A stretch of 44,954 nt of DNA from an uncultured Lachnospiraceae bacterium. Lineage in GTDB: Bacteria; Bacillota; Clostridia; Lachnospirales; Lachnospiraceae. Within the stretch, counting starts at the first letter, position 1, and the number at the start of each line of letters is the position of its first letter. The stretch is taken from the NCBI GenBank assembly GCA_902463835.1, contig CABQGZ010000001.1, forward strand, positions 1-44,954. Reading direction: 5' to 3'. Below are positions 1-42,519 of the stretch, in pieces. The position numbers and the translations under genes were made by a program. The notes under the pieces are model-generated. The model was not told the DNA's origin. It did no database searches and saw only the letters and a program-made list of their open reading frames with translations.

Positions 1-47
1 GTGTAAAATGTGTGTTACAAAACAAAAACAGAACGAGGAGGAAACAA

Positions 48-17900: not shown

Positions 17901-18481
17901 TAAAGCCGGTTGTGGACAAGTCCATATTGAAGCAGCTGATAGACAAAGCGACTGCCATGCTTCCGGATGAGGAGCGGTATATGGCGGACAACTGGCCGAA
18001 GCTTACCGCAGCCCTTGAAAAGGGACAGAGCGTATACGAGAATGAGGAAGCCACCCAGGAAGCGGTAAATGCGGCAGCAGACGAGCTTCTGGGGGCGATC
18101 ATGGCACAGCGGTTTAAGGCAAATAAGTCGAATCTGGAAAAGCTGGTGAAGGAAGCGGAAGGCGTTGATACAGCCCGCTACACAGCAGAGACTGTAAAAG
18201 TATTCCAGGCAGCCCTTACAAAGGCAAAAGCAGTATTGGCAGACGAGACATTGTCGGAAAGCGAGCATAAGAGCGTGGACGACGCAGCAAAAGTGCTGGC
18301 GGAAGCGAAGGCTGCATTGCAGGAGAAAGACAACACCGGTGACGGCACAAAGGACGACGGAAAGGATTCACCGAAAACCGGAGACACGGCACCCATGGCA
18401 CTGTGGGGAATGATTGCAATGCTGGCAGTTGCGCTGATTACAGGATTTGAGAAGAAAAAATGGAATAGGAATCTGAGATAA
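11987..18481 (+). CDS. Giant surface protein C (2164 aa): signal peptide, 3 F5/8 type C (CBM32-like) modules, galactose-binding-like jelly roll, He_PIG/cadherin-like Ig, divergent GH29-like TIM-barrel domain, Big_2 domains, CBM6/35-like module, 4 FIVAR-like repeats, SPKTG sortase signal
   Basis: AAGGAAGGGAAG RBS precedes ATG 11987. MNRKWKRMTACALAAVVAATSFGIPGAKKEAEA looks like a signal peptide. 'AVDGDKNTCW', 'AVDGDMDTAWKS' and 'GGNTSRWTPD' are discoidin signatures. 'YTWEIVEGQLPDGLTMDDNGVLDG' is He_PIG-like. The GH29-like region is ~14054-15390 ('KWFEEGK', 'ERHGLRFGVYYA', 'YLFFDGGP'). 'VPGRIEAEDG...NLNWLEFVKV' (17087-17470) is CBM6/35-like. Confidence 0.9.
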   Translation: MNRKWKRMTACALAAVVAATSFGIPGAKKEAEAAYTTGNAPYINTWLVAGPSDTSVTDAIYEDVAAPVERPEDGNWARVAKVSATSSWQNGPYSYPDRTDSPSAKNNVDKAVDGDKNTCWLAQMHDAEGAPESWPKWDPAPTYYLEWKTPIQVKTVEFFDRYDSGWGDRHISEIEEVKVTLKNAKDEVLAEQTVTDINHKGETPGVAAFDTAVQDVSKIELLIVHDGVKDLRNVGLGFSEINVFDGEKTEEPGQGEDPEGTKLEVSSASASTTLSGSSASYAVDGDMDTAWKSDTRQGIVWDDALTLTLDLAEVAQITQIKINGFERDNKQLNVTYTLLDEDGAPIKEVSQSSIVNTDFTATAITKAYNVKTVKAKIRETGGAPNHLGIKEIEVYGIAGKTEAPEEPEEEPAIQISPKLGDTFGDARWEYFDDRIFNRNLDDWQDLYGYYTVKKGISTENKYVYAHTYVYSPKKQTVNLRMVTSGLHKVYVNDKLVHQNDTAVESSNKDQYRQSVTLKEGWNKLLIEVQHTRVHYLGFYARLCDKDGNEVKDLIYSVMGDQEESLQIVTQGLDIDRTAFEERNQEIPSNMYPENELPYGYTQWPYVWNKPIHRTNNWAPQASGFRFQAAGGAPAYTWEIVEGQLPDGLTMDDNGVLDGYCETAGEYPFTLQVTDAEGRTATKTTKIVVKERPNKWFEEGKMSALSHDTGAYAQFYDENFSYDLWAERAKKAGMTLLSTEALQAVYYWPGPGATNANLQHPYTLEEVDGKLQPKDMVKLAKEAAERHGLRFGVYYASEGSNRLPNGHTNNSSGFFANVEDLMKRYDPSYLFFDGGPQGKGNVDAMWSAVRAYNDYALIQANDQNEAGDNDLTILETEYTGKMPYVHGGYWETNMLNQNKYTVEEAWTHPFFQEIGVWAQYAGGNMRDDWRLFAEYIIYSIGHGIVPNYDQMIVNTRGVNWSGIGFAAGSKDEYYYLPLNAQQMIDMRDKVNAWMANEGKPDLHESLFGTMPYYFDTYEKKAGWHENTEKEPFLTAKYGEGPDWGYTVARNQYIYMHMQENTMGAGRAKVGFTGQESMEVGPFTDKVLHVEWLNEGRELGFTTSTRDGKNYITIDTSAVKADPVDTIIKITTDSDKRDFTLTSVKLFGEQTKTTELQLRAEAYLKTYTNVFAPAQLTYTSSNTNVAKVDANGLVTPVGAGKATIQVVAEYEGVQASDTYAVKVDAAGNISVDEELIGVVMRTAGKETFGKFSTNKNLPITFEARTEKGGGVNVLSYDDVTYHYAVCYGQKDGHVAEADGYWKDHEVDNLNGLLKIIEDEVVFNGVIPEEENVAIWADITIDGKTYTTNKNFLRLVRSGVLNENIVPEVSSNEADAAAVTDGILNSADGGNTSRWTPDQRDQNPTMTFELEKEYTVDGVRVFYNNKDRKYLNTPKEIQIEISSDNKEWTTVVEAGGVPSASTIYCYEDEKYTYDVNAKAKYVRVTFPEGAADSVMDILEVQILGVDLAAVLSEIEVTKTPGADGKELALEVTGYTGQGEVLDLTDGTVTITSDNQAVATVNGNTVKAAGQGTAKITVQASLSGFEASQVFYVKVGEDGGLVLTDYLKSIAVSLDSTILDNGAHNKIKADISGKWNTGEAVDLSGAKITCECSSEKLTYNAADGTITVKGTIDTNEMATVRFTVTVDGVALESQNFDLALVASTFNVPGRIEAEDGIIEGERVRGESGDGGTALGYIMEGDVYTYFVNVEEAGVYEVYYRAVAEQMDKRIRFYVNGELQGNMRFTEAGDWTTFTTQKQEDLVQLKNGLNIITLKPQGGGYICNLNWLEFVKVADIEEPVEDPANKYLLQRTYDYAVTLNTDGVAESAKAYFEKTLAEAKAVLENEKATQDQVNAAWDNLLDGIWSLGIYKGEKGALKELIDQAKAMNKDDYEVENWGMLEEALAKAEAVYADEDATQDIVDAAKEELQKAIDAQVLKPVVDKSILKQLIDKATAMLPDEERYMADNWPKLTAALEKGQSVYENEEATQEAVNAAADELLGAIMAQRFKANKSNLEKLVKEAEGVDTARYTAETVKVFQAALTKAKAVLADETLSESEHKSVDDAAKVLAEAKAALQEKDNTGDGTKDDGKDSPKTGDTAPMALWGMIAMLAVALITGFEKKKWNRNLR
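17498..18328 (+). repeat. C-terminal stalk cassette, copy 3 (4 FIVAR-like repeats)
   Basis: PANKYLLQRTYDYAV...FKANKSNLEKLVKEAEG...LAEAKAALQEK. Confidence 0.8.
18368..18481 (+). other. Cell-wall sorting signal: SPKTG motif, hydrophobic segment, basic tail
   Basis: SPKTGDTAPMALWGMIAMLAVALITGFEKKKWNRNLR. Confidence 0.75.
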
Positions 18482-18497
18482 AGGATGTGCAGAATAT

Positions 18498-18523
18498 GAG
18501 GGGCTCTGCATGAACAGCCCCTC
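18498..18523 (+). terminator. Intercistronic hairpin between genes C and D (8-bp GC-rich stem, no U-tract)
   Basis: GAGGGGCT (18498-18505) pairs with AGCCCCTC (18516-18523) around a 10-nt loop that contains the ATG at 18510. Confidence 0.3.
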
Positions 18524-18557
18524 TCCTGTACCTTCCCAGAAATGGAGGAATATAGCT

Positions 18558-21500
18558 TTGAGAAATAAGAAGATGATTGGAAAACGTGTGACATCTGTGC
18601 TATTAGCATCAACAATGCTGATATCCACTTTTGCCGCAGGCAGTTCCCTGCTCAATGTACAGGCCCAGCAGGTAAGCGGAAACGCTCCCTTTGTGAACAC
18701 CTGGCTGGTGTCGGGCCCCTTTGACACATCCGTGGCGGACGGCATCTACGATACGGTGGTGCCGGAGAATCCAAACCTTGCCCAGAAGGCAACGCCCACA
18801 GTATCGTCTGCGACACTTGCCTCCAATCCGGCCAGCTTCCTGATCGATGGCTCGGAGCGGAACCAATGGGTGACGGAGGGCAAGGAGGTTCCCTGTTGGG
18901 CACAGCTGGAGTGGGAGGAACCCATAACGGTAGGATGTATGGGAATTACCCTCTGGGCGGATGGACGCCACAGAAACAAAAATTATGATCTGATCTTCAC
19001 TTATGCAGACGGAAGCGAGAGCGATGCAATCCGGGTAGAGACCACAGTGAGCGATGCAAGCGCTCCCACGTATTACACACCGGCGACTCCGTTGGAAAAT
19101 GTGAAGAGTGTCCGTGTGCTGGTGGATCCGGACTTGAGACCGTATCCATCGATCACCGGTATTGCGGAGATATCTGTGTACCGGTACGCACTGGAGGAGG
19201 AGAGTGCGTCTGTGGCAGCCATTGCTCAGGCGGAGGAAGACGGTGAATACGTCAACCTTGCAGGAAACGCAGCTGTGAGCGCAAGCTCCAGCTGGCAGAC
19301 AGGCGCCCTGGATTATCCGGGCGATTCTCCTTCTGCGGACAAGCTGCCAAAGTTTGCTGTAGACGGAGACCGGAATACAGAGTGGATCTCACAGATGCAC
19401 GACAATTGGATCAACGATTTTGATCCGGCGTATTGGCCCAAGTGGGATCCCAAGCCGACCTTTGTGTTGGAGTGGGACAATCCCATCGAGGTAAAGGAAG
19501 TGGCCTTTTATGACAGACACAATGCGGCATGGCCGGATGGGACATCCAATGTGGCAGAGGTGGATGTTACTCTGTATGATGAAAAAGGCAATGTGCTTCA
19601 GACCCAGAAGGTGACGGAGATCGATCCCTACTCTGTGACTCCTGGAAAAGCAACATTTGACAACGCAGTAAAAAATGTCTCCAAAATCACTCTGGAGATC
19701 ATCCATGACGGGGTCAAGGAATCCAGAAACGTTGGTCTTGGCTTTACCGAGGTGGAGGTGTACGGCCGTGAGGCAGAAGTGCCGGAGGTTCCGGCCGGAA
19801 AGAGCATTACCCCCACATTGGGTCAGAATCTGGAATACGGGGAGGAGCGCGGAGCATGGGAGTACTTTGACGACCGCATCTACAACCGGAATTACGATGA
19901 TTATCAGGATCTGAACGGCTACTATGCAATCAAACAGAACATTGACACGAAAAATAAGTTCGTCTATGCACATACCTATGTGTACAGTGACAAGCAGCAG
20001 ACAGCTCAGGTGCGTGTGGGCGCCAGCGGTTCCTACCGTGTGTACTTCAATGACCGCGCACTGATCAAGCCTACGGTTCCGGCAGAAGTGCAGAAGGACA
20101 TGACCGTAAAGCAGGTGACATTAAAGGAAGGCTGGAATAAGCTGCTGATCCAGATTGAGCACACCTACACGGAGGACGTGAATGGTAACGGCGTTCCCAT
20201 CGCAAAGGACGCCAATGTATCCTACCTTGGATTCTACGGAAGAATCACCGACACCTCCGGGAATGAGATAGAAGGGCTTGTATATTCCACAGAATGCGGT
20301 GATGAGAGCGCACTTGAGATTACAACCAAGGGACTGAAGGATGCAGAGGGATTGCCCCGAAACGTACTTCCCACCGGTTACAAAGAGTGGCCCTATGTAT
20401 GGAATAAATCCACAACCAACAACGCTTACGGTCTGTCTGCTTCCGCATTCCGGTTCCAGGCGGCAGGCGGTGAACCGGGATACACCTGGGAGATCATAGA
20501 TGGCGCCCTTCCGGATAATCTGGAGCTTTTACCGGACGGAACCATCGCGGACGGTCTTGTGAATGGAAAACCGGATTTGAACAGTGACAAGGGAATCATC
20601 CCTGCTACCTGTGAAGAAGGCGATTACACATTCACACTTCGTGTTACAGACAAAGCGGGAAATACCGCAGAGAAGTCCTTTGCGATCACTGTGGAAGAAC
20701 GGCCAAACAAGTGGTTTGAGGAAGGGCGTGTGGGCGCATTAAGTCACTGCATCGCTATCCCAAGAACCTTTGTAGACCCAAATTTCTCTGCTGATTTGTG
20801 GGCAGAGCGCGCCAAGGCCCAGGGACATTCTCTGGTGTCTATCGAGGCATTACAGCAGAACTATTACTGGCCATCCAAATTTGCAGATCCCAAGCATGAC
20901 AGGAATATCTACATGGCGAAAGACGAAAATGGAAATGTGGTGGATCAGCTGAAAATCTTCGAGGAGGCAGCGAAAAGGTATGGCATCCGGTTTGGACTTT
21001 ACTACGCCACCGAGGGAGGCGGACTGCAGCATTACTCCACCGATGTATTTGTTCAGAACGTGGCGGATCTGATTGAACGCTACAGCCCGGATTACCTGTA
21101 TTTTGATGGACCTCAAGCTATGAGAGGAGCCAACTACGATGTGATGTACAGCAATGTCCGCAACTACAGCAACCATATTATCATCAACTCCAACGCCTGG
21201 GGCGAAGAGTTCGGCGATCCCGATCTTGGAACCCATGAGGCCAGCGGTATTTACTCCAATGTGGGGCGGAACCATTTTGTGAAAAAGGTGGTATTTGAGC
21301 CCTGGAAATCGGCACACACCAAGAATAATCCTACCCCCTACTATGCGCGCCGAGACGATTATGCCCAGGTGGCAAAGGAAATGATTATGAACGCGGGCCG
21401 GGGTTACGTGGACAACAATGACCAAATGCCGCTTATGAGCAGAGGAAGTAACTGGGATTCCCCGGAAGATATTGCGACAAGATACCCGAAGTCACTGCAG

Positions 21501-24500
21501 GAATTCATTGATCTGCGTGAAAATGTGGCAGCGTGGTTTGCACCGGAGGGATATTCCGAGCGCCACGAATCCACCACCGGCACAACGCCTTACTTCCTCT
21601 CCGGATATGGATACGAGGATGACGGAAAGGGCAACTATGCCAATTTTGCTTTCCCCAATGCTAACATCGGACCACGGTGGGGATATGCCACCAGCAGAGA
21701 CAACAATCTCTACCTGCACATTATGGAAGGCCCGGACAGCAAGATCGGATTCAGGGCCATCGAGAACAAGGTTTTAACCATTTCACCGGTAGCAGACAAG
21801 GTGACATCTGTTATCTGGCTGAACCGGGATGAGGAGATTGCGTCCTTCACCCAGGAAGGAGACACGCTGACCATTGATCTGAGCGGCGTGGAGGAAGATA
21901 AGGTTGACACCATCATCAAGGTTGTGACAGACAGCCAGGTGCGCAAGTACAAGCTGACCAACCTCTATCTGAAGGGAATTCCCACAGAGGACGGGAAGGT
22001 GCAGCTGGATGTGGAAGGATATATGACATATCCGGCACTGAAAGCAAGTCTGGAAAAGGTTATCTACAGCGTATCCAGCGGCGTCGTGACGGTGGATAAG
22101 AACGGTCTTGTGAGCCCGGTAAGCGACGGAACAGCCGTTGTGACAGTGAGCGGAACTTATGAAGGTACGACCGTGAGCGAGGATATCACCATCAGCGTCA
22201 AGGATGGCGCGGCATTTGTGGATGATGAGATCACCAGTGTGGCGCTGCATGTGGGAGAACGTGAGGTCTACGGTGAGGTTTCCTGCTATGGCATGTATGA
22301 CTTATCCTTAGAGGGACGTTCTGTGGACGGCGGAGCTACCGGTTTAAATGACGCGGAAATCATCTGGCATACCGGAACCGTGGATCTGAAGGGCGGCGAT
22401 AAGTATGTGCCCATTAAGATCACGGAGAACGACACGTTGATCGTCGGAAACGGGAAGCTGATTCCAAAGCCGGTACAGGAGCTGACCCGCGCCGTTGTGT
22501 GGGCGGAGGTAAAGAAGGACGGTACGACATATACTTCCAACAGAGTATATCTGGATCTGCGCCCGGCGGCAAATCTGTCAGGGGAAGCAAAGATCACTGC
22601 AAGCGCCAATGAAGCGTCTGTTGACAAGATAAAGGACGGGCAGATCGTAAATGGAACCACACACGACGATTCCAAATGGACTGCCGAAGGAAGCGGATGG
22701 ATGACCTTTGAGCTGCCCCAGAAGGCGGATATCTCTGAGATTGACATTTACTACAACACCAAAGATCAGAGCTATGTCAACACGCCTGCGACTATTGAGA
22801 TCCAGACCAGCGAGGACGGGGAAGCATGGACGACCCAGACTACTGCAAATGGGCCCAGCGGAAGCGCATGGTTTGGCTTCTACACTCCATACAAAGTAGA
22901 TTTTAACACGAAATATATCAGATTGCAGTTTACAGGAAGAAACGGTGGAGCCTTCGATATTATGGAAGTGATGCTCATGGGTGAGGATATCAGCAGTGCC
23001 TTGTCCCAGCTTGCATTAGATCCAACAGTATCGGAAGACGGAAAGCGCATCACCATCGACATGACAGGCCTGGATCAGCGAGGCGAGGAAGTCAGTCTGG
23101 AGGGTGCCCAGGTTACCGTGATCAGTGAGGATGAATCCGTTGTCAAGGTAAATGAGGACAATACGCTTGCACCGGTGAATCCCGGAAGAACAAGGATCAC
23201 AGTTCAGGTGATGCAGGCAGTGGTTGCCCAGAGACCGGGATATGCCGAGAACAGCTTCTTCGTAACTGTGAACGAAGCAGGAAAACTGGAATTATTGCCT
23301 TACTTAAGCGCAGTGGAGCTGGCTGTTCCTACCAGAACAGTTTCCTACGGCAAACCTCTTGTGGCGGCTCCGGTAATCAAACTCAGCGACGGAACGACTG
23401 TGGCGGCGAAAGACGCAGAGGTGCAGTATGTGATCGGAGACGAGCGCTTAAGACAGGTAGAAGGAACGAACACCCTTCTTCTTGATGAGGATATTGAAAA
23501 TGGATTTGCCACAACGGTAAAGGCAGTGGTAACTTACGACGGTATTACCGTAGAAAGTGAAGAGATAACAGTTACGGCACTTGGTAGGAATCTTGCGGTG
23601 AGCGCATCAAATGTGACAGTATCTTCCGTGAGAGACAGGAATGGTGTGCCGGATGGAAATAATGTGGATGACCGGTATACGGCAAATAAGGCAGTGGATG
23701 GCAATAAGAATACCTGCTGGGCTGCAAAACAGGCGGATAAATCTCCGTGGATCAAACTGGATTTTGACGCGGAGACAGAGATCGGCGGTGTGAACCTGGT
23801 TGACCGGGGACATGCGGTGAATGCCATTGTGGAAGGACTTCTGGAGTTCTTTGATGCAGAGGGACAGCTGATCTACAGCCAGAAAGTAACAGAGCTTGCA
23901 TGGGATGGTCAGCCGGACAACATAATTACCTTAGACCAGCCAGTGAAGGCATATTCCATGAGATTCACCATTGATCCGGAAGTGAAATATCACCAGGCGA
24001 CTTCTGAGCGTGGTCTGGCAGAGATACAGATTTTTGCACCGGAGATTACAGTTGAGAAAACGGTAGTGGAGACGATCGGAGCAGATGTGACAACGCAGGC
24101 AGGTACGGTGCCTGTTCTTCCCAGCGAAGACATTACGGTTGTGTACAACACGGGTGAGAAGGAACTTGTATCAGTAACCTGGAATACCATCGATAAGGCA
24201 GATGTCGCAGTGCCAGGAACCCTGGCAGTAGAAGGTGTGATCACAGGAACCGACATCAAAGTAAGCGCTAAGGTGACCATAACAGAGAATGAATCTCCGG
24301 AAGAACCGTCGAAATTGTTAGGTCTGCTGGAGCAGGTTTATAACAAGGCGAAGGATCTGAGCACAGACGGCGTGGTAGATTCCGCAGTAGCATTCTTCGA
24401 AAAAGCGCTGGCGGAGGCAAAGGATATCCTTGACAACAGACCGGAGGCTAGCGATGAAGAGATCACGGCTGCCATCGAAAAGCTCTTTGACGCGGTACAT

Positions 24501-25145
24501 GGATTAGGCCTTAAGAAGGGCGACAAGACCATGCTGGAGGTTCTGATTACAAAAGCGGAGGAGATGCAGAAGAATCAGGACAAGTATGTGGAGACACACT
24601 GGACACAGTTGGTGGATGCCCTGACAAAAGCCTATGGTGTTATGGAGGACGGAGACGCCATGGATGAGGATATTGTTCCCATGGTGGATGAATTGCTGGA
24701 TGCCATCGTGGCACAGCGGTACAAGGCCAACAAGTCTAATCTGCAGGAGCTGATCAACAAAGCAAGCGGAATTGATACCGCCAAGTATACGCCGGAGAGT
24801 GCAGCAGTATTCCGGGCAGCATTCAAGACAGCCCAGGCAGTGCTGGCAAACGAAGCTTTGACCGAGGACGATCAGGCACAGGTGGATGATGCAGCTAAAA
24901 TGTTGGCACGTGCGATGGACGGCTTGAAGCTGGCCGCGGCTGACGGAGATGACGGCAGCAAGAATGACAGCGACAAGGACGACAGTAACAAGGCAGACGG
25001 CAGCAGTAGCAGCGATGCAGATAAGTCGACGGCACCCAAGACCGGAGACAGCGCACCGATTGCCCTCTGGGGAATGACAGCATTACTGGCATTGTTTACT
25101 GAATTAGCAGCAGCCTGGAATCAGAGAAAAAAACGTCGCGTATAA
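18558..25145 (+). CDS. Giant surface protein D (~2195 aa), paralog of C: signal peptide, several F5/8 type C modules, jelly roll, He_PIG-like Ig, divergent GH29-like TIM barrel, Big_2 and Big_4 Ig domains, 3 FIVAR-like repeats, APKTG sortase signal
   Basis: Uninterrupted ORF 18510..25145. The preferred start is TTG 18558, with GGAGG at 18544-18548 and a 9-nt spacer, giving MRNKKMIGKRVTSVLLASTMLISTFAAGSSLLNVQAQ. Alternative starts are ATG 18573 and ATG 18510 (the latter lies in a hairpin loop). Collinear with protein C: 'NAPFVNTWLVSGPF', 'AVDGDRNTEW', 'YTWEIIDGALPDNL', 'KWFEEGRVGALSH', 'RYGIRFGLYYA', 'YLYFDGPQ' (GH29-like region ~20694-21935). Confidence 0.88.
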   Translation: MRNKKMIGKRVTSVLLASTMLISTFAAGSSLLNVQAQQVSGNAPFVNTWLVSGPFDTSVADGIYDTVVPENPNLAQKATPTVSSATLASNPASFLIDGSERNQWVTEGKEVPCWAQLEWEEPITVGCMGITLWADGRHRNKNYDLIFTYADGSESDAIRVETTVSDASAPTYYTPATPLENVKSVRVLVDPDLRPYPSITGIAEISVYRYALEEESASVAAIAQAEEDGEYVNLAGNAAVSASSSWQTGALDYPGDSPSADKLPKFAVDGDRNTEWISQMHDNWINDFDPAYWPKWDPKPTFVLEWDNPIEVKEVAFYDRHNAAWPDGTSNVAEVDVTLYDEKGNVLQTQKVTEIDPYSVTPGKATFDNAVKNVSKITLEIIHDGVKESRNVGLGFTEVEVYGREAEVPEVPAGKSITPTLGQNLEYGEERGAWEYFDDRIYNRNYDDYQDLNGYYAIKQNIDTKNKFVYAHTYVYSDKQQTAQVRVGASGSYRVYFNDRALIKPTVPAEVQKDMTVKQVTLKEGWNKLLIQIEHTYTEDVNGNGVPIAKDANVSYLGFYGRITDTSGNEIEGLVYSTECGDESALEITTKGLKDAEGLPRNVLPTGYKEWPYVWNKSTTNNAYGLSASAFRFQAAGGEPGYTWEIIDGALPDNLELLPDGTIADGLVNGKPDLNSDKGIIPATCEEGDYTFTLRVTDKAGNTAEKSFAITVEERPNKWFEEGRVGALSHCIAIPRTFVDPNFSADLWAERAKAQGHSLVSIEALQQNYYWPSKFADPKHDRNIYMAKDENGNVVDQLKIFEEAAKRYGIRFGLYYATEGGGLQHYSTDVFVQNVADLIERYSPDYLYFDGPQAMRGANYDVMYSNVRNYSNHIIINSNAWGEEFGDPDLGTHEASGIYSNVGRNHFVKKVVFEPWKSAHTKNNPTPYYARRDDYAQVAKEMIMNAGRGYVDNNDQMPLMSRGSNWDSPEDIATRYPKSLQEFIDLRENVAAWFAPEGYSERHESTTGTTPYFLSGYGYEDDGKGNYANFAFPNANIGPRWGYATSRDNNLYLHIMEGPDSKIGFRAIENKVLTISPVADKVTSVIWLNRDEEIASFTQEGDTLTIDLSGVEEDKVDTIIKVVTDSQVRKYKLTNLYLKGIPTEDGKVQLDVEGYMTYPALKASLEKVIYSVSSGVVTVDKNGLVSPVSDGTAVVTVSGTYEGTTVSEDITISVKDGAAFVDDEITSVALHVGEREVYGEVSCYGMYDLSLEGRSVDGGATGLNDAEIIWHTGTVDLKGGDKYVPIKITENDTLIVGNGKLIPKPVQELTRAVVWAEVKKDGTTYTSNRVYLDLRPAANLSGEAKITASANEASVDKIKDGQIVNGTTHDDSKWTAEGSGWMTFELPQKADISEIDIYYNTKDQSYVNTPATIEIQTSEDGEAWTTQTTANGPSGSAWFGFYTPYKVDFNTKYIRLQFTGRNGGAFDIMEVMLMGEDISSALSQLALDPTVSEDGKRITIDMTGLDQRGEEVSLEGAQVTVISEDESVVKVNEDNTLAPVNPGRTRITVQVMQAVVAQRPGYAENSFFVTVNEAGKLELLPYLSAVELAVPTRTVSYGKPLVAAPVIKLSDGTTVAAKDAEVQYVIGDERLRQVEGTNTLLLDEDIENGFATTVKAVVTYDGITVESEEITVTALGRNLAVSASNVTVSSVRDRNGVPDGNNVDDRYTANKAVDGNKNTCWAAKQADKSPWIKLDFDAETEIGGVNLVDRGHAVNAIVEGLLEFFDAEGQLIYSQKVTELAWDGQPDNIITLDQPVKAYSMRFTIDPEVKYHQATSERGLAEIQIFAPEITVEKTVVETIGADVTTQAGTVPVLPSEDITVVYNTGEKELVSVTWNTIDKADVAVPGTLAVEGVITGTDIKVSAKVTITENESPEEPSKLLGLLEQVYNKAKDLSTDGVVDSAVAFFEKALAEAKDILDNRPEASDEEITAAIEKLFDAVHGLGLKKGDKTMLEVLITKAEEMQKNQDKYVETHWTQLVDALTKAYGVMEDGDAMDEDIVPMVDELLDAIVAQRYKANKSNLQELINKASGIDTAKYTPESAAVFRAAFKTAQAVLANEALTEDDQAQVDDAAKMLARAMDGLKLAAADGDDGSKNDSDKDDSNKADGSSSSDADKSTAPKTGDSAPIALWGMTALLALFTELAAAWNQRKKRRV
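24306..24932 (+). repeat. C-terminal stalk cassette, copy 4 (3 FIVAR-like repeats, more diverged)
   Basis: PSKLLGLLEQVYNKAKDLSTDGV...YKANKSNLQELINKASGIDTAKYT...LARAMDGLKL. It lacks the 'GALKELIDQAKAM...' repeat found in copies 1-3. Confidence 0.7.
25032..25145 (+). other. Cell-wall sorting signal: APKTG motif, hydrophobic segment, basic tail
   Basis: APKTGDSAPIALWGMTALLALFTELAAAWNQRKKRRV. Confidence 0.75.
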
Positions 25146-25416: not shown

Positions 25417-28400
25417 ATGAGAAAATGGAGGAAGGGCCTGAGCTTTCTTTTGGCGGCCAGTATGCTGGTATCTACGGCATTCGTATCGCCGCAAAGGGTT
25501 CAGGCGGAAACGAAAGAAAATGTTGCGCTGCACAAGACGGTGACCGTTGCGCCCGGCATGCCGGAGGCAGGAAAAGAACTGATCACCGACGGAGCAAAAG
25601 CAAGAGGCTGGGACAAGAGCTATATGTACCATACGTCAGCGGAGGCTGAGGACACGGCGACAAAGCCGTATATCACGATCGACCTGGGGGAGAGCTATGA
25701 TATTGATCAGATTGTGTATTTCGGTGTATGGCCGCCGGATGCAGGATACTATAATACATCCCATAACATGGTGATTCAGGTGTCCAACGATGCAGATTTT
25801 GCAGATGAGACTACAAAAACGGTATACAACACAGATGTGAATAATTTCTTTGGCTTTGGCGCAGGCACGGATGCTGCCGGATTGTACCAGGAGCCAAAGA
25901 ACGGGGAGGACGGCATCAGCGTCGAGTTCCCGACAACCAATGCCCGGTATGTGCGGTACTATCAGCACGGCGCTACCCAGCAGGGGCAGAGCACCAATTG
26001 CTGGCCCAACGCATTGACGGTGGGAGAGCTTGAGGTGTACACAGCCGGCGGAGAAATACCCGTTGTGCAGATCCCGGAGGGAAATGCTGCCTATCAGGCA
26101 GAAGTTACCGGTTCTGCGTTCAACTCCAAGGGGGCGGCCACCAATGGATGGTGGGGCGGTTACGGCCGCAACGATCTCTCCGACCTGACCTGCGGTTCCG
26201 TCACAGATAACTGGAAAGCCCCCAGTGTGAACGAGGACGGCGAACTGGGTGAGCTTGTCTATGTGCAGATGAAGCTGAAAAAAGCACAGGATATCAACAC
26301 CATCCAGATCTGGAGCAAGGGAGGCTTTACGTATCTGGCACAGATCGTTCAGATATCGGAGGACGGGAAGAACTGGACGAATGTGTACAATTCAGACACG
26401 GACAACAAGGCAGGACAGGATCCCTCTGATTCCGGAAAGACCGTCTGTGGAGGCAAGCTGGCGAATGGCACTCTGACCGGAGTGAAGGCGGGTGCGGATG
26501 AAGCCTATGCCGAAAATGGAGCAAAAACCATTGCCTTTGACACGACGAAGGCTCAGTATATCCGCTGGTGGTGCAGCGGCAACAGCACAGGCAACAGTCT
26601 GCCGCAGATGATTCAGCTGCAGGCATATAAGAAATGCATTGTCACCTTCGACTATAGAGATGGCGATAAGACAGAGAAGGTGTCTGTCACGGGCGGAAGC
26701 AACATCTCCAGGCCGGAAACACCCGTTTACTCAGTGGTCGGAAAGCTGTTTGACAGATGGACAGTAAATGAGGTTGGCGGCAAAGCGTGGGATTTTGGTG
26801 ATCCCGTCACCGAGGATATGATGCTTGTTGCCAACTGGATGGATGCGGACATTCATACCGTCACCTTTGACTCAGACGGCGGAACAGAGATCGCTCCGAT
26901 ACAGGTTACGGATAGTCTTGCCGTTGTCAGGCCGGAAAATCCCAGTAAGGAAGGAGCTGTCTTTGCAGGCTGGAAGCTGAATAAAGCGCCTTATAATTTC
27001 GGAAGCCCGGTGACAGGAGACATTACGCTTACCGCCACCTGGGTAGAACCAGCTCAGCCGGATGCGGTAGTGCTTCGTGCGGGTCTGCTGGACATGACCC
27101 TTGACAGCCATGGACAGGTGACGAAGCTTGTGAGCACTTTGGATGGAACAGACTACTATTCGGACGGACCGGATGGAAAATACAGAAGTCTGGTATCTTT
27201 GATCGCGGATTATCATATTGAGACGCCTACCTCTGTCTCCTATGATGAAAACGCAGGAATACTTACCTTTGGATTTGCCTCCATCAATGCGACGGCGGAA
27301 GTAACTGTGAAGAAACAGGGCGACTATACGTCTTTGACACTCTCTAAGGTGGAGAAACCGGACGGCATTTCCATACAGGCAATCCTTTGGGGACCAATCA
27401 AAAATACCATCACCACCGGAGGTCAGACGGTAGGAACCGCTTATGATGAGACATATGCCATCGGTATGCATATGCTGAATACCAAGACCATCGGCGGATG
27501 GCCCATCGAGTATAAGAATGATTTTTATGCGCCGGATCTGCCCACGGTAAACGGCTATGCGGATTCGCGTGTCACAAGAAATATCTATTCCAACACGGCA
27601 GCTTTCTCCACCTGGGGAAGCGCCCTGCAGGCATACACATGGGATTATACAAAGGATACCATGCGGACGATCGCTTATTTTTCGGAGGTAAAGCAAATGC
27701 AGCCCGCTATGACTGGAAAGTATGCGGATGAACTTGCCAGCATGATCGGATCCTCCGTGGCGCTGTATGGAACAAGACGGGACAATATACTGAATGTGAT
27801 ATCGAATATCCAGATCAAGGAGGGATTGCCGCATATCACCATCAATGGCCAGTGGCAGAAGACCTCTGTGGAGACAGGACAGGATTTCCTGGTATTCAAT
27901 GATGCGATCTGGGGACTGGATGTTGTAGAAAATGACGCAAAGATGGCCAACGCAGCCGGGATCAATTACATCTATGGCCAGTATGGCGCAGGCGGCCCCT
28001 GGAACGGTGACGGCTCCTATGAATTTAACGGTCTGTTTGGCGGTTCCGATGAGAATGCCAGGCTGTTGGTTGAAAAAGCTGCGGAATATGATGTGTATGT
28101 GGGTACACACACCCTGTCGAACCTTATCTCCTGGGGCACCAAATACATGACGCCGGAGGCCAGCAGCGCGTTATCCTACGCAGGATTTGCAGGATTGACC
28201 AGGGAGGCGGCAGCCTCGGATACGGAGCTCTATGTGAAGGACGGGCATCCATTCTCAAATGAAGTGGTAGGCGCATCCGGCGGCAGCAGACTTTTAAGAA
28301 TCGACAAAGAGCTGGTAACCTTTACCGATTGTGTTCAGGTAGGGGATGGGGAATGGAAGCTGACAGGCTGTACCCGCGGTGTGAATGGCACAAAGGCGGC

Positions 28401-30261
28401 AGACTACGTTGTCAGTGAGAATGTATATAAGCTCTGGGCTTACTACACATGCCCGGCACTGGGCGGATGGGAGTCCATCGAGCCGATGACTTCCCGTATG
28501 GGTGAAGTATATGGAGATATCGGCATCCACTGTATGTCCTATGATTCCTTTGAATCAACAAAATACTCAGTGTACAGCTCCATGCTTCCCGCAATGTACA
28601 TGAAGAGTGTATATAATGAGGTGAAGGAAGCTGGCAAGGCGGACGGATTCCTCACGGAAGCAAGTGATATGGACACCAATGTATGGGATGTACATTCCAG
28701 AATCAGCTGGGGCGAGTCCAATACACCGATCCATGCCATGATGAATTATCTGAATTACTACGAGCAGAACTTCTTCCCCTGTATGTTGGGATGGATGTAT
28801 GACCACGGAAATCACGGCGGATACGGGAAAGCGCAGCTGCTGATGAATCTGTCCATGAAGGGCGGCTGGAATGCCGGTGCAGGCTGGTATGTGAACCGGA
28901 ACACATTTAATTCTTATCCGTATATGGCGGAAATGCTCAAGACCTGGAACAACGCAATCCAGAAGGGAGCCTTTGTAGTCGGCGGTGAATACACCAAAGA
29001 GCTTCAGAATGAGATGAAAAACGCATGGATAAACGGAAAAGTATGGACCTTGACAGAGACGGTGGCGGACAAGGAATGGACGCTGCAGCAGGTGAATAAG
29101 GCGAATCTGGAAGAGAAAATAGGAGAGCCGGTTACACTGTATGCCACCAATAAGATTGCTGTTGAACAGACGGAAAACGGTGATATCGCAACCAGCGCTT
29201 CCAGGGATTACTCCAGAGTCCACGAGGGTGATGTTGTGACGGTATATGAGCAGGCATTTGACGGTTATCGCATGAAAGCCGGAACCTTGACCGTAACAGG
29301 TGTGGACGGAGCGGCTTGTGATCTGACGCCAGTGGAGGGAGAATCGGGAGCTTATACCTTTACGATGCCAGCCCAGGATGTGACCATCACAGCGGAGTTC
29401 GAGGCGGAGAAGCAGGAGACGGACAAGGCGGATAAATATCTGCTGCAGGCGACTTATGATTATGCCCAGACCTTAAGCACCGACGGTGTGACAGCCAGTG
29501 CAAAAGCGTTCTTTGAGAAAGCGTTGGCAGCTGCAAAGGTCGTTCTAGAGGATGAGGAAGCGGTTCAGGCAGAGGTTGACCAGGCATGGGACAATCTGCT
29601 GAAAGGTATCTGGGGTCTTGGTATTGTAAAAGGTGACAAGACTTATCTGGAACAGCTCATCTGGAAAGCGGAGAGCATGATGCCCAACGCGGACAAGTAT
29701 GTAGAGAGCTATTGGCCGCAGCTGACAGAAGCATTGGAGGCCGGAAAGGGCGTGTTCAATGATGAGGATGCCCTGGATGAGGATATTGAACCTGTGGTAG
29801 ATACACTGCTTAACGCGATACTTGCCCAGCGATTCAAAGCGGATAAGTCCAATCTTCAGGAACTGATCAACAAGGCTTCCGGAATCGACTTGACCCGGTA
29901 TACAGAGGAGAGTGTAAGTGTTCTGAAAGCAGCTATGAGGTCTGCAAAGGCAGTTATGGATGATGTGAATCTGAGTACAGATGACCAGACAAAGGTGGAT
30001 GAGGCAGCAAAAGAGTTAAATGATGCTATTGAGAGACTTGTGAAGGAAGCCTCCGTTGACGGCGATAGCGATGATAAGAACAATACGGAAGAAGGCGGAG
30101 GTAAGAACGGCAGTGCTGGAGACAACAGTAAGCCCAATGCGCCAAAGACGGGTGATCAGAGCGATGGCTTAATTTGGATGTTCCTGGTTATTGCAGCTTT
30201 TGGCATAGCCATGTTGGTTGTGAGAAAGAAGAGAGAAGACAGGAAATATGAAATGATGTAG
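25417..30261 (+). CDS. Giant surface protein E (1614 aa): signal peptide, 2 F5/8 type C modules, 2 Listeria-Bacteroides (Flg_new) repeats, ~690-aa unassigned central region, InlB-B-repeat-like domain, 3 FIVAR-like repeats, APKTG sortase signal
   Basis: AAGGAGAGGAG RBS precedes the start. MRKWRKGLSFLLAASMLVSTAFVSPQRVQAE looks like a signal peptide. 'VTFDYRDGDK...FDRWTV...LVANW' and 'VTFDSDGGTE...FAGWKL...LTATW' (26641-27050) are Flg_new-like. 'VTVYEQAFDGYRMKAGTLTVTG...YTFTMPAQDVTITAEF' is InlB-B-like. The C-terminus is APKTGD, then a TM segment, then RKKREDRK. Confidence 0.9.
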   Translation: MRKWRKGLSFLLAASMLVSTAFVSPQRVQAETKENVALHKTVTVAPGMPEAGKELITDGAKARGWDKSYMYHTSAEAEDTATKPYITIDLGESYDIDQIVYFGVWPPDAGYYNTSHNMVIQVSNDADFADETTKTVYNTDVNNFFGFGAGTDAAGLYQEPKNGEDGISVEFPTTNARYVRYYQHGATQQGQSTNCWPNALTVGELEVYTAGGEIPVVQIPEGNAAYQAEVTGSAFNSKGAATNGWWGGYGRNDLSDLTCGSVTDNWKAPSVNEDGELGELVYVQMKLKKAQDINTIQIWSKGGFTYLAQIVQISEDGKNWTNVYNSDTDNKAGQDPSDSGKTVCGGKLANGTLTGVKAGADEAYAENGAKTIAFDTTKAQYIRWWCSGNSTGNSLPQMIQLQAYKKCIVTFDYRDGDKTEKVSVTGGSNISRPETPVYSVVGKLFDRWTVNEVGGKAWDFGDPVTEDMMLVANWMDADIHTVTFDSDGGTEIAPIQVTDSLAVVRPENPSKEGAVFAGWKLNKAPYNFGSPVTGDITLTATWVEPAQPDAVVLRAGLLDMTLDSHGQVTKLVSTLDGTDYYSDGPDGKYRSLVSLIADYHIETPTSVSYDENAGILTFGFASINATAEVTVKKQGDYTSLTLSKVEKPDGISIQAILWGPIKNTITTGGQTVGTAYDETYAIGMHMLNTKTIGGWPIEYKNDFYAPDLPTVNGYADSRVTRNIYSNTAAFSTWGSALQAYTWDYTKDTMRTIAYFSEVKQMQPAMTGKYADELASMIGSSVALYGTRRDNILNVISNIQIKEGLPHITINGQWQKTSVETGQDFLVFNDAIWGLDVVENDAKMANAAGINYIYGQYGAGGPWNGDGSYEFNGLFGGSDENARLLVEKAAEYDVYVGTHTLSNLISWGTKYMTPEASSALSYAGFAGLTREAAASDTELYVKDGHPFSNEVVGASGGSRLLRIDKELVTFTDCVQVGDGEWKLTGCTRGVNGTKAADYVVSENVYKLWAYYTCPALGGWESIEPMTSRMGEVYGDIGIHCMSYDSFESTKYSVYSSMLPAMYMKSVYNEVKEAGKADGFLTEASDMDTNVWDVHSRISWGESNTPIHAMMNYLNYYEQNFFPCMLGWMYDHGNHGGYGKAQLLMNLSMKGGWNAGAGWYVNRNTFNSYPYMAEMLKTWNNAIQKGAFVVGGEYTKELQNEMKNAWINGKVWTLTETVADKEWTLQQVNKANLEEKIGEPVTLYATNKIAVEQTENGDIATSASRDYSRVHEGDVVTVYEQAFDGYRMKAGTLTVTGVDGAACDLTPVEGESGAYTFTMPAQDVTITAEFEAEKQETDKADKYLLQATYDYAQTLSTDGVTASAKAFFEKALAAAKVVLEDEEAVQAEVDQAWDNLLKGIWGLGIVKGDKTYLEQLIWKAESMMPNADKYVESYWPQLTEALEAGKGVFNDEDALDEDIEPVVDTLLNAILAQRFKADKSNLQELINKASGIDLTRYTEESVSVLKAAMRSAKAVMDDVNLSTDDQTKVDEAAKELNDAIERLVKEASVDGDSDDKNNTEEGGGKNGSAGDNSKPNAPKTGDQSDGLIWMFLVIAAFGIAMLVVRKKREDRKYEMM
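29425..30048 (+). repeat. C-terminal stalk cassette, copy 5 (3 FIVAR-like repeats)
   Basis: KADKYLLQATYDYAQTLSTDGV...FKADKSNLQELINKASGIDLTRYT...ELNDAIERLVKE. Confidence 0.7.
30139..30261 (+). other. Cell-wall sorting signal: APKTG motif, hydrophobic segment, basic tail
   Basis: APKTGDQSDGLIWMFLVIAAFGIAMLVVRKKREDRKYEMM. Confidence 0.75.
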
Positions 30262-30282
30262 ATGAAAATGAAATTATTCGTC

Positions 30283-30310
30283 AGAGAGTGCATTTATGCA
30301 CTCTCTTTTA
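30283..30310 (+). terminator. Perfect 10-bp hairpin with a short T-run between gene E and the downstream operon (partial terminator or attenuator)
   Basis: AGAGAGTGCA (30283-30292), TTTA loop, TGCACTCTCT (30297-30306), then TTTA. The AAGGAG RBS of the next gene follows immediately. Confidence 0.5.
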
Positions 30311-30321
30311 AGGAGCTTATC

Positions 30322-31296
30322 ATGACAGAAAGAGAACGTTTTATCAAAACCTTAAAGTGTGAAAAAATCGGGGGACGTGTACCGCATTTTGAACTGGTAT
30401 TTTTTCTTACGATGGAGGCTTTTGGCAAGATGCATCCCCAGCATCGGCTTTATAACCAGTGGAATCAGATGAGTTATCAGGAACAGAAATGCCAGATTAG
30501 TGATATTGCGGATGTACTCATTGATACAGCCAGAAAGTATAATCACAGCGCAATTTTTGTGCAGACAAACCTCCAGGGTGTGGATAACATACAGTGGATT
30601 CTTGAGACCATCCGGGAAAAATCCGGCGATGAATATTATCTGATGATGCACGGGGATCCTACCTGGGCCATTCCCGACGGAGATTCTATGATGGATTTTG
30701 CCGTACAGATGCTGGAGGAGCCGGAGAAGCTCAATGAGATTTCCAGGCAGCGGGTGGAGGAACATTATCAGCTTGCCAGGGAACTGGATCAGAGAGGCCA
30801 TTTGCTGGATGGGTTCACCCTATGCTCTGATTACTGCTTCAATGTCAATCCATTTTTTGCGCCGGAGCAGTTTGCGGAACTGGTAGCGCCGTATTTGAAA
30901 GAAATCATTGATGCCTACCGGGATATGGGATATTACACGATCAAACATACCGACGGAAATATTATGCCCATATTGGATCAGATTGCAGCCTGCAGACCGG
31001 ACGCCATACATTCTTTGGATCCCCAGGGGGGCGTCAGTATTCCAAGGGTTCGGGAAATTGTAGGAGACAAGATTGCACTGGTTGGAAATGTGAACTGCGG
31101 TCTGCTGCAGACTGGAACCGATGAGGAATGTGATGCGGATGTGATGCGTTCACTGCGGGAAGGAATGGCAGCTGGAAAAGGATATATTTTTTCCACATCG
31201 AACTGCGTCTATACGGGAATGCCTCTGAAGCGGTATGAGCGGATGCTGGAGCTGTGGCAAAAATATGGTGATTATTCGATAGAGTCTAATAGATAA
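30322..31296 (+). CDS. URO-D/MtaA-like family protein 2, cytoplasmic
   Basis: AAGGAG (30310-30315) lies 6 nt before ATG 30322; the upstream part of the ORF from 30262 overlaps the hairpin. 'ERERFIKTLKCEKIGGRVPHFE' has an MtaA/URO-D-like N-terminus. 'IKHTDGNIMPILDQIAACRPDAIHSLDP' is present (HTDGN at 30946-30960). Confidence 0.85.
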   Translation: MTERERFIKTLKCEKIGGRVPHFELVFFLTMEAFGKMHPQHRLYNQWNQMSYQEQKCQISDIADVLIDTARKYNHSAIFVQTNLQGVDNIQWILETIREKSGDEYYLMMHGDPTWAIPDGDSMMDFAVQMLEEPEKLNEISRQRVEEHYQLARELDQRGHLLDGFTLCSDYCFNVNPFFAPEQFAELVAPYLKEIIDAYRDMGYYTIKHTDGNIMPILDQIAACRPDAIHSLDPQGGVSIPRVREIVGDKIALVGNVNCGLLQTGTDEECDADVMRSLREGMAAGKGYIFSTSNCVYTGMPLKRYERMLELWQKYGDYSIESNR

Positions 31297-31325: not shown

Positions 31326-32354
31326 ATGAGAACATTGACACGAGAAGAAGTAAAAAATGTGATAGAAGGAAAAGGAAGAGCGGAACGAATCCCGCTGCTG
31401 TATGATCTGTGGATCTATAATAACATGTTTGGAGAGGATGAGAAGATCTATCAGGAGTGGCAGAGACAGTATCCCTGCGATGTGGATGAAGTGTTTTTGA
31501 ATATGCCGGGAATGACGGAGGGGCCGGCGGAGGATCCGGCATTTTTCTGGGCGCCGCCGGGAGCAAGAAGCCAGGAAGGAAAAGGATTGGATGCCCAGTG
31601 TGTACTGGAGGACTGGGAGAATGAGGAGGAGGTAGAGACTTTCTTTCAGACATTTCCGGATCCGGAATCACCGGCACTTATCACCTGTGAGAAGGAAAAG
31701 GATGGGCGGTATCTTCTGGGGCGTTGGTGGTATTGTTTTTTTGAACGGCTCTGGTCCTTGCGGGGGATGGAGAATGCATTGACTGATTTTTTCCTGTATC
31801 CAGACGAGGTACACCGACTGTTCTCCAGATTGACCGATTTCTATATGAGATGCATGGAGCGGGCCAAGGAAGCCTGGGATGTGGACGGTTTCTTTGTGTC
31901 GGATGATATCGGAACCCAGACAGGTCCCTTTTTCTCACTGGAAATCTTCCGGGAGTTCTTTAAGCCTTATTATAAGAAGCTGATCGACAAGGCTCATGAG
32001 CTGGGAACGCATTTCTGGCTTCACAGCTGCGGCAATATACAGATATTCCTGCCGGAATTCATTGAGATCGGACTGGATGTGATTCATCCCATCCAGAAGA
32101 ACACTATGAAGGAAGAGGAGATCGCAAAAGAATTTGGCAGCCAGATCTGCATCCTTGCGGGATTTGAGGTACAGCGTCTGATGGCGTTTGGGACAGTGGA
32201 AGAGGTGAAGGAGGAAGTGAATTTTCTGGTGAAGACCTATGACCGGCTGGAGGGACATCTGATGCTGACCATGGGGAATGGTTCTACCCCGGACTGGAAG
32301 ATAGAGAATCTGGATGCGGTATATGAGGCATCTATGAAAGCTTTAGGAGACTGA
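31326..32354 (+). CDS. URO-D/MtaA-like family protein 3, cytoplasmic; retains an H-x-C-G motif
   Basis: GGAGGAG (31311-31317) lies 8 nt before ATG 31326. 'FWLHSCGNIQIFLPEFIEIGLDVIHPIQ' (HSCGN at 32022-32036) resembles the zinc-site strand of MtaA/MT2-type methyltransferases. Paralogous to the two other URO-D-like ORFs. Confidence 0.85.
   Translation: MRTLTREEVKNVIEGKGRAERIPLLYDLWIYNNMFGEDEKIYQEWQRQYPCDVDEVFLNMPGMTEGPAEDPAFFWAPPGARSQEGKGLDAQCVLEDWENEEEVETFFQTFPDPESPALITCEKEKDGRYLLGRWWYCFFERLWSLRGMENALTDFFLYPDEVHRLFSRLTDFYMRCMERAKEAWDVDGFFVSDDIGTQTGPFFSLEIFREFFKPYYKKLIDKAHELGTHFWLHSCGNIQIFLPEFIEIGLDVIHPIQKNTMKEEEIAKEFGSQICILAGFEVQRLMAFGTVEEVKEEVNFLVKTYDRLEGHLMLTMGNGSTPDWKIENLDAVYEASMKALGD

Positions 32355-37616: not shown

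Positions 37617-37620
<4 letters not shown>
35524..37620 (+). CDS. GH43-like five-bladed beta-propeller glycosidase with C-terminal beta-sandwich (CBM6-like) modules, cytoplasmic (698 aa)
   Basis: 'GVCDPHIHIF...YLYATHD', 'WSSKDLIDWQ', 'CWAVDAAYRNGTYYLYFS', 'VGVAVSEHPAGPFRD' and 'PEDKPSIHKENGIYYLTHA' match the GH43 Asp/Asp/Glu motif order. No signal peptide. Confidence 0.75.

Positions 37621-42519
<4,899 letters not shown>

Follow-up and report, generated by a model that had tools for sequence, protein, structure and literature searches.

An unclassified family of glycoside hydrolase-like barrels with a phage-tail-type insertion as the probable catalytic head of a wall-anchored protein from an uncultured Lachnospiraceae bacterium

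The stretch of DNA analysed here (the window) comprises positions 1 to 44,954 of contig CABQGZ010000001.1 from an uncultured Lachnospiraceae bacterium (assembly GCA_902463835.1). It encodes a row of five consecutive giant wall-anchored proteins, the fifth of which, protein E, is our subject. A preliminary description, made from the sequence alone, had pointed to the central region of protein E (27055-29120, corresponding to residues 547-1234 of one long open reading frame) as a candidate new catalytic module, matching no recognisable glycoside hydrolase (GH) family. We find that this core (residues ~548-1238) is probably the GH-like catalytic head of a large family left unclassified by Pfam, NCBIfam, the PDB and the literature, and that it resembles retaining α-glycosidases. 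The proposal of a new module holds as far as sequence classification is concerned; on the other hand, the fold is a known one, an inserted domain had passed unseen, and the core is not a one-off sequence but belongs to a large family. No description of this sequence family, of its phage-tail-like insertion or of its specificity was found in the three databases named above or in the literature.

Searches with the Pfam (2025) and NCBIfam (June 2026) libraries returned no glycosidase family match for the core, and the only Pfam match inside it is a small Rcc01698_C domain (residues 923-995). No PDB sequence match was obtained with phmmer or with two profile searches. We then considered single families. 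The GH101 model PF12905 gave no match at an expectation value (E) <=1 in protein E or in 52 diverse family members; the same library detects this model in genes neighbouring family members at two Paenibacillus loci (L001 and L002). Likewise, the GH31 model PF01055, the GH36/GH27 Melibiase models (including PF02065) and the GH129 model (GHL1-3, PF11308) matched neither protein E nor the 52 members, a D-x-x-E spacing being all that is shared with the GH31 signature around the nucleophile (W-x-D-M-N-E type), and the GH13 α-amylase model had no Pfam match in protein E. One local match between the core profile and a GH13 chain was collinear and sub-threshold (E = 1.1). Indeed, no glycosidase Pfam model at all matched the 52 members. 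By sequence, the core belongs to none of the GH13, GH31, GH36 and GH101 models tested, in agreement with the earlier claim that no GH family is recognisable in it. A search of the literature on GH101-like, GH129-like and new GH families, and on six member accessions, found nothing matching the core.

The structure of the core was predicted with AlphaFold2 from a 31-sequence alignment (predicted local distance difference test, pLDDT, 93; predicted template modelling score, pTM, 0.91). Positions in this excised core, denoted q, equal the protein residue minus 544. The model consists of a β-sandwich (q7-218), a barrel (~q236-640) interrupted by a β-rich excursion (q361-472), and a C-terminal β-sandwich from q665; in stand-alone homologues the C-terminal domain is longer than in the protein E core. 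A second model, of the barrel only, has a pLDDT of 87. The N-terminal β-sandwich and the alternating β/α-like segments had both been anticipated in the preliminary description, and both appear in the models, the latter as the alternating strands and helices of the barrel.

A Foldseek search of the PDB with the whole core, one of the checks that had been proposed, gave 373 matches at E<=1e-3, the top ones at E ~1e-13 and probability 1.0. The best were GH101 EngBF (E 8.7e-14), GH31 YicI and sulfoquinovosidases, and GH36 AgaA and the blood-group-A galactosaminidase FpGalNase; over this search and the one with the barrel alone, the template modelling (TM) score for GH36 was 0.45-0.47. The barrel alone matched GH13 SusG (E 1.4e-8), GH36 TtGalA and AgaA, and GH31 enzymes, with TM scores of 0.40-0.50. 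In GH101, GH31, GH36 and GH13, all of them families of retaining α-glycosidases or transglycosidases, the nucleophile is an Asp on strand 4. The predicted fold of the core is already known and not new; all these likenesses are at the level of fold only, and none of these searches gave a confident match either to a CAZy family of characterised activity or to a domain that is only structural. Since the barrel is glycosidase-like and lies outside those families by sequence, protein E probably represents a widespread, unnamed family of sugar-cutting enzymes.

The active sites of TIM barrels lie at the C-terminal ends of the barrel strands. According to the DSSP assignment of both models, this is where H898, D1043, E1046, E1081 and E1100 are all located (Table 1). 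Conservation was counted over ~165 diverse family sequences aligned to the family hidden Markov model (HMM). This mapping of the acidic residues, which had also been suggested beforehand, places invariant acids at the catalytic face of the barrel. E1100 is Glu in 87% of the representatives, and other conserved positions are W1090 (160/164), N1118 (150/164) and W1177 (163/163). Protein E keeps every conserved acidic residue. Carboxylates are assigned to strands 4, 5 and 6 on the strand count that DSSP gives for both models. The nucleophile stands on strand 4 in GH13, GH31, GH36, GH27 and GH101, while the acid/base stands on strand 5 in GH13 and GH101 and on strand 6 in GH31 and GH36. The modelled core shows a (β/α)8 barrel of this kind, with a conserved carboxylate ending strand 4 and a second one on strand 5 or 6. 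Together, the barrel fold and the conserved acids at its catalytic face support the idea of a catalytic module.

We propose that the enzyme would act on an α-glycosidic bond by a double-displacement (retaining) mechanism. D1043 of the D-x-x-E motif on strand 4 would serve as nucleophile, with either E1100, at the GH31/GH36 position, or E1081, at the GH13/GH101 position, as general acid/base. H898 and the insertion, with its residues E965 and R987, may contribute to the substrate pocket. The sortase anchor would expose the enzyme on the cell wall, and the two CBM32-like modules (carbohydrate-binding module family 32) would direct it to a complex glycan, possibly with galactose or fucose; the products would be passed to the GH38, GH43, DUF5054 and GH2 enzymes encoded downstream.

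The insertion, of ~110 residues, deserves separate consideration. The Pfam domain Rcc01698_C (PF23666) has a cut-off of 27 bits, which the insertion passes with 30.9 bits when the full protein is scanned and with 32.3 bits when the core is taken alone. In a Foldseek comparison with the viral structure library BFVD, the insertion gave matches of ~90 residues to phage tail-fibre and tail proteins (root-mean-square deviation 1.6-4 Å, identity 20-23%), whereas the whole core found only weak TIM barrels there. A viral origin of the core as a phage protein was considered and rejected, the good BFVD matches being limited to the ~90-residue insertion. On the strand count given above, the insertion sits between β3 and α3, where GH13 enzymes have their domain B. 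It contains E965 (170/171) and R987 (166/168), which are more conserved than any other residues of the family.

Homologues of the core were readily found, 13 by a word-indexed search and 32 by a profile search, with E down to 0, and the family HMM aligns end to end over residues 546-1238 of protein E. The closest homologues are giant gut-metagenome proteins of the same architecture (66-82% identical); Paenibacillus and Bacillus proteins are intermediate (52-53%), and stand-alone proteins of ~760-820 residues are distant (21-29%). An exhaustive HMM search of 1.84 billion cluster representatives retrieved 3315 at E<1e-3, of which 844 had E<1e-30. As judged from sequence, the core is a real, conserved unit. 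A genome scan, which samples only members carrying the conserved LWGP motif, located the family in metagenome-assembled genomes of gut Clostridiales, Lachnospiraceae and Ruminococcaceae, in Paenibacillus, Aminicenantes, Catenulispora, Streptomyces and Actinoallomurus, in several Bacteroidota and in one Chloroflexia metagenome-assembled genome. Among the 52 members the recurrent Pfam matches are Rcc01698_C (21/52, E<=0.01) and CBM32 (8/52); other accessory modules are DUF7402, NPCBM_assoc, He_PIG and LamG. In the clusters looked up, the source names are 'hypothetical protein', 'InlB B-repeat-containing protein' and 'NEW3 domain-containing protein'. A search of the window for another member of the family found none.

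The preliminary description had suggested looking for homologues beside known carbohydrate-active enzymes, and family members do sit in sugar-utilisation loci with GH29 and GH95 fucosidases, GH2, GH123 and sulfatases. Among 80 immediate neighbours at 21 loci, Pfam identifies four ABC (ATP-binding cassette) permeases, three GH95 N-domains, two GH29, two sulfatases, two GH2 and one GH123; AraC or LacI regulators are also present. Fucosidases recur, and they specify no substrate. In two Paenibacillus genomes (L001 and L002), an ABC sugar importer and a two-component AraC system lie ahead of a stand-alone family gene, whose 3′ end is overlapped by a GH101-like gene; further on come sulfatases and a GH29 gene. 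The overlap suggests translational coupling. These stand-alone Paenibacillus proteins of ~800 residues start without an obvious signal peptide. In Streptomyces, the genes before the member encode an ABC importer and a GFO/IDH/MocA oxidoreductase, and a GH29-CBM32 gene is close by; a Bacteroidota member (contig L004) belongs to a SusC/SusD locus that also encodes an ECF (extracytoplasmic function) sigma/anti-sigma pair. In the latter contig, a 723-residue protein without Pfam match (7786-9957) precedes the family member. In Bacillus sp. FJAT-28004 and in a gut orthologue at 80% identity, the member is accompanied by GFO/IDH/MocA, an ABC importer and an AraC regulator, to which a URO-D gene and a GH2 gene are added in the gut orthologue. 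Overall, GFO/IDH/MocA directly adjoins the member in Streptomyces and Bacillus and lies in the same locus in a gut Clostridia contig. ABC sugar importers are found alongside, and the oxidoreductase may serve the oxidation of the released sugar. The neighbourhood of the family is company typical of carbohydrate-active enzymes.

Several points weigh against a retaining α-glycosidase-like head. The top whole-core structural matches are only fold-level (TM 0.37-0.46, identity 8-12%), and profile-profile alignment of the family with hhalign was not significant, all probabilities being below 2% (0.4% with YicI of E. coli, GH31, and 1.5% with two Paenibacillus GH101-like proteins). The putative catalytic residues were positioned by means of secondary structure and motifs instead of a superposition, and the strand numbering hinges on q236-243 not being counted as part of the barrel. 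Both acid/base candidates vary: at position 1100, 11 representatives have Gly, and at position 1081, 37% have a non-acidic residue. The conservation of E965 and R987 may serve the fold of the inserted domain, not catalysis. Finally, the literature search found no enzymatic data for any family member, and anomeric specificity and substrate are pure inference.

Three other explanations have to be weighed against a GH-like head of an unclassified family. The core might belong to an existing CAZy family, either a recent GH or a divergent GH101, GH129 or GH31 subfamily not represented in Pfam, NCBIfam or the PDB, in which case its activity would be known already. Its fold plainly belongs with the known α-glycosidase clans, and our checks covered Pfam, NCBIfam, the PDB, source names and the literature, not CAZy or dbCAN. 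New GH families are also created yearly. However, those recent ones that we found, GH195 (GH99-related), GH191 (GH114-like) and GH192-194 (β-1,2-glucanases), were rejected as a home for the core: the folds of GH195 and GH191 are unrelated, and none of these families fits. GH129-like 3,6-anhydro-galactosidases from carrageenan work, considered by name only, do not appear by name among the top 50 structural matches. Moreover, no GH model of Pfam or NCBIfam matches protein E or the ~52 diverse members, no PDB chain is related at the level of sequence profiles, the named members are all 'hypothetical' or named after an accessory domain, and the literature offers no match. We therefore regard membership of an existing family as unlikely. 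The same fold could alternatively carry an active enzyme with another chemistry, namely a transglycosylase, a glycoside phosphorylase, an eliminase like α-glucan lyase, or a β-acting enzyme. GH13 and GH31 include transglycosylases and lyases, the barrel-only Foldseek search also gives amylosucrases and a GH112 phosphorylase, and the GFO/IDH/MocA genes beside members, together with the MtaA-like URO-D genes in the clade of the window, point to unusual downstream sugar chemistry. Against this, no phosphorylase- or lyase-specific feature was detected, and extracellular wall anchoring with CBM32 modules is typical of polymer hydrolases, so that a different chemistry appears rather improbable to us.

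It could also be argued that the barrel is dead and works as a glycan-binding or adhesive module, as in a pseudo-enzyme or adhesin. Protein E is indeed rich in adhesin-type modules (Flg_new, FIVAR, LPXTG), its insertion resembles parts of phage receptor-binding tail fibres, and a minority of members lack Glu at the W-G-E position. However, protein E itself retains all the conserved acids, and the best-conserved positions of the family are at the catalytic face of the barrel. Furthermore, stand-alone members without obvious signal peptide follow ABC importers, where an adhesin role makes no sense. A dead barrel is, in our opinion, very improbable, and a GH-like catalytic head remains the explanation that we prefer.

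Table 1. Coordinates of protein E, of the parts of its core and of neighbouring or related genes (window coordinates unless a homologue locus is named; conservation counts as described in the text).
Feature	Coordinates	Strand	Residues	Basis or remarks
Protein E, secreted wall-anchored multidomain protein	25417-30261	+	1-1614	Open reading frame list and translation, 1614 residues
Two F5/8 type C (CBM32-like) modules	25519-26631	+	~35-205, 222-405	Pfam F5_F8_type_C / F5_F8_type_C_2
Two Flg_new (Listeria-Bacteroides) repeats	26635-27039	+	~407-541	Pfam PF09479, E 3.4e-22
Core of the unclassified GH-like family	27058-29130	+	548-1238	Family HMM, AlphaFold2, Foldseek
N-terminal β-sandwich of the core	27067-27711	+	~551-765	DSSP mostly strands, q7-218
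Predicted (β/α)8 barrel	27754-28971	+	~780-1185	Alternating strand/helix in both models
Barrel strands β1, β2, β3				DSSP: q280-283; q307-310; q350-356 (H898)
Barrel strands β4, β5				DSSP: q495-499 (D1043 last residue); q535-538 (E1081)
Barrel strands β6, β7, β8				DSSP: q551-553 (then W-G-E1100; seen in barrel-only model); q578-583; q610-615
H898	28108-28110	+	898	End of strand β3 (V-G-T-H-T-L-S-N); His 156/172 (91%)
β-rich insertion after barrel strand 3	28129-28464	+	~905-1016	Pfam Rcc01698_C
D1043-S-F-E1046, D-x-x-E motif	28543-28554	+	1043-1046	End of β4 (DSSP); Asp 161/166 (97%), Glu 153/164 (93%)
E1081	28657-28659	+	1081	End of β5, q535-538; Glu/Asp 103/164 (63%)
W1098-G1099-E1100	28708-28716	+	1098-1100	After short β6; W 147/164, G 158/164, E 142/164 plus 5 Asp
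Start of the C-terminal β-sandwich	28996-29130	+	~1194-1238	Strands q665-691
Divergent InlB B-repeat (Flg_new_2)	29155-29409	+	1247-1331	Pfam PF18998, E 1.6e-5
FIVAR-containing helical module and sortase-type anchor	29380-30258	+	~1322-1614	Pfam FIVAR, two stretches
Five giants A-E	12-4733, 6158-11908, 11987-18481, 18510-25145, 25417-30261
Three URO-D-fold paralogues	4988-5992, 30262-31296, 31326-32354	+		Most similar to MtaA/CmuA methylcobamide methyltransferases
DUF5054 protein, candidate enzyme	37617-39515			Pfam E 2.7e-42; between GH43 and GH2 genes; no NCBIfam match
GH101-like gene at Paenibacillus loci	L001 12406-16044; L002 12379-15825			Overlaps 3′ end of stand-alone family gene
URO-D gene at homologue locus	L040 16057-17064
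GFO/IDH/MocA genes at member loci	L003 8538-9851; L040 23446-24816; L042 14593-15882

The domain layout of protein E is given in Table 1. Its N-terminus is signal-like in translation. The boundaries of the F5/8 type C modules are approximate, having been set by eye from an alignment with the homologues P0001 and P0002. The best-scoring Flg_new repeat spans residues 480-540, and a family profile matches the B-repeats of internalin B in the PDB. The C-terminus carries an APKTG motif (PKTG at residue 1576), a hydrophobic stretch and a basic tail, and is matched by the NCBIfam model TIGR01167 (LPXTG_anchor). The preliminary description had placed the central region between Flg_new repeats and an InlB-B-like domain, and Pfam confirms both flanks. 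It had also called the region non-repetitive and rich in aromatic residues and Gly, which agrees with our results. Neither a tandem DNA repeat in 27055-29120 nor a repeated 5-mer peptide in the central region was found. Gly makes up 10.0% of the region against 8.7% of the rest of protein E, Tyr 6.5% against 4.0% and Trp 2.9% against 2.3%, a modest enrichment. All seven peptides that it quoted occur at the expected places, starting at residues 551 (VVLRAGLL...), 849 (INYIYGQYG...), 891 (YDVYVGTHTLSN...), 1035 (IGIHCMSYDSFEST), 1077 (GFLTEASDMDTNVWD), 1119 (FFPCMLGWMYDHG...) and 1149 (GGWNAGAGWYVNR).

The five giants share only their C-terminal FIVAR/anchor module of ~290 residues, at 38-76% identity across the five; by BLASTP, proteins A-D are 38-48% identical to residues 1322-1610 of protein E. 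Proteins A and B are paralogues with β-helix heads (40% identical over ~1150 residues), B having a faint GH141-type match, and C and D are paralogues as well (33% identical over ~1800 residues), D having a weak GH29-type match. The N-terminal ~600 residues of C and D gave no confident family match. The head of protein E is unique among the five (BLASTP). The earlier suggestion that the core holds the position of the head in the other giants is consistent with these data, because the giants have only the C-terminal module in common and differ in their heads. The open reading frame of protein A begins at a GTG 11 bases from the window edge, and its true N-terminus is therefore probably lost at the contig end.

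Downstream of protein E are two URO-D/MtaA-like genes, followed by GH38, GH43, DUF5054, GH2 and an AraC-type regulator. The URO-D paralogues score 25-52 bits, far under the family cut-offs of 235-400, and we saw no corrinoid protein in the window. To find genes of this type in a glycan locus is unusual, and they may indicate that methylated sugars are O-demethylated. In the orthologous locus of another gut metagenome, the URO-D gene adjoins a DUF2284 gene. It is conceivable, though doubtful, that the core founds a new GH family (~800+ clusters at 50% identity, in at least 6 bacterial phyla) cutting a linkage for which no enzyme is known in a fucosylated, possibly O-methylated glycan, and that the MtaA-like (URO-D) and GFO/IDH/MocA partners complete a new route of methylated-sugar degradation in gut Clostridia.

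If the core is active, it would be a sizeable and taxonomically broad addition to the catalogue of carbohydrate-active enzymes, and one invisible to Pfam and NCBIfam annotation. As the family is displayed on the surface within giant-glycosidase loci of gut Clostridia, it could mark the use of an unrecognised dietary or host glycan. The stand-alone versions of ~800 residues from Paenibacillus (for example GZH47_23525 of Paenibacillus rhizovicinus, WP_162643468.1) and Streptomyces are easy entry points for experiments, and in Paenibacillus the GH101-like gene and the stand-alone family gene could encode a two-enzyme pair.

Among known systems, the endo-α-N-acetylgalactosaminidases of GH101 (EngBF, 2zxq; SpGH101, 3ecq/5a55) give the top whole-core Foldseek match and have, like the modelled core, an N-terminal β-sandwich followed by a (β/α)8 barrel. 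The GH101 pattern of acids on consecutive strands, D and then T-E, may be paralleled in protein E by D1043 and then T-E1081 (as placed by DSSP, not by superposition). The weak collinear similarity detected with hhalign and hmmsearch covers the N-terminal domain, where the β-sandwich matches that of a GH101-like protein, and the β2-loop-helix-β3 segment, each being non-significant alone. Here, the core '...G-P-W...F-G-G-S-D-E-N-A...V-G-T-H-T' aligns to GH101 '...G-H-P-D-Y-G...G-G-L-K-D-L-N...I-G-V-H-I', so that the H898 segment falls on the GH101 'GVH(I/V)N' strand. On the other hand, identity is only 9-10% and TM 0.42, the β5 acid of the core is not conserved family-wide, and, going by the Pfam domains of the GH101-like neighbour genes, GH101 has no insertion of the Rcc01698_C type.

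The enzymes of GH31 (the α-xylosidase YicI and YihQ-type sulfoquinovosidases) and GH36 (AgaA, FpGalNase), both of clan GH-D, have the same layout of β-sandwich, barrel and β-sandwich, with TM scores of 0.44-0.50. The YicI motif K-T-D-F-G-E shares its D-x-x-E spacing with D1043-S-F-E1046 on strand 4, and the acid/base motif H-W-G-G-D of YicI is echoed by the W-G-E after strand 6 of the core. These families differ from it in sequence (9-11% identity), in having Asp where the putative acid/base of the core is Glu, and in that the large β-insertion of the core is of another type. The best barrel-only matches are to GH13 (clan GH-H, SusG). Here, the conserved strand-3 His, strand-4 Asp and strand-5 Glu of the core are alike, and GH13 domain B and the CBM58 of SusG are inserted after strand 3, as is the insertion of the core. 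The sub-threshold GH13 alignment covers the β2-loop-helix leading into β3 and ends just before the H898 strand. In contrast, the strand-7 His-Asp of GH13 region IV has no counterpart in the core, because strand 7 reads M-L-G-W without an acidic residue, and the N-terminal β-sandwich of the core is of the GH31/GH36/GH101 type, which is also a difference from GH13. Finally, the insertion is like the Rcc01698_C and tail-fibre distal domains of phages, passing the gathering score and superposing over ~90 residues; whereas those domains are part of a virion, the protein E copy is inserted in the enzyme-like barrel of a cellular protein, as a phage-tail-type β-domain apparently grafted at the position of GH13 domain B.

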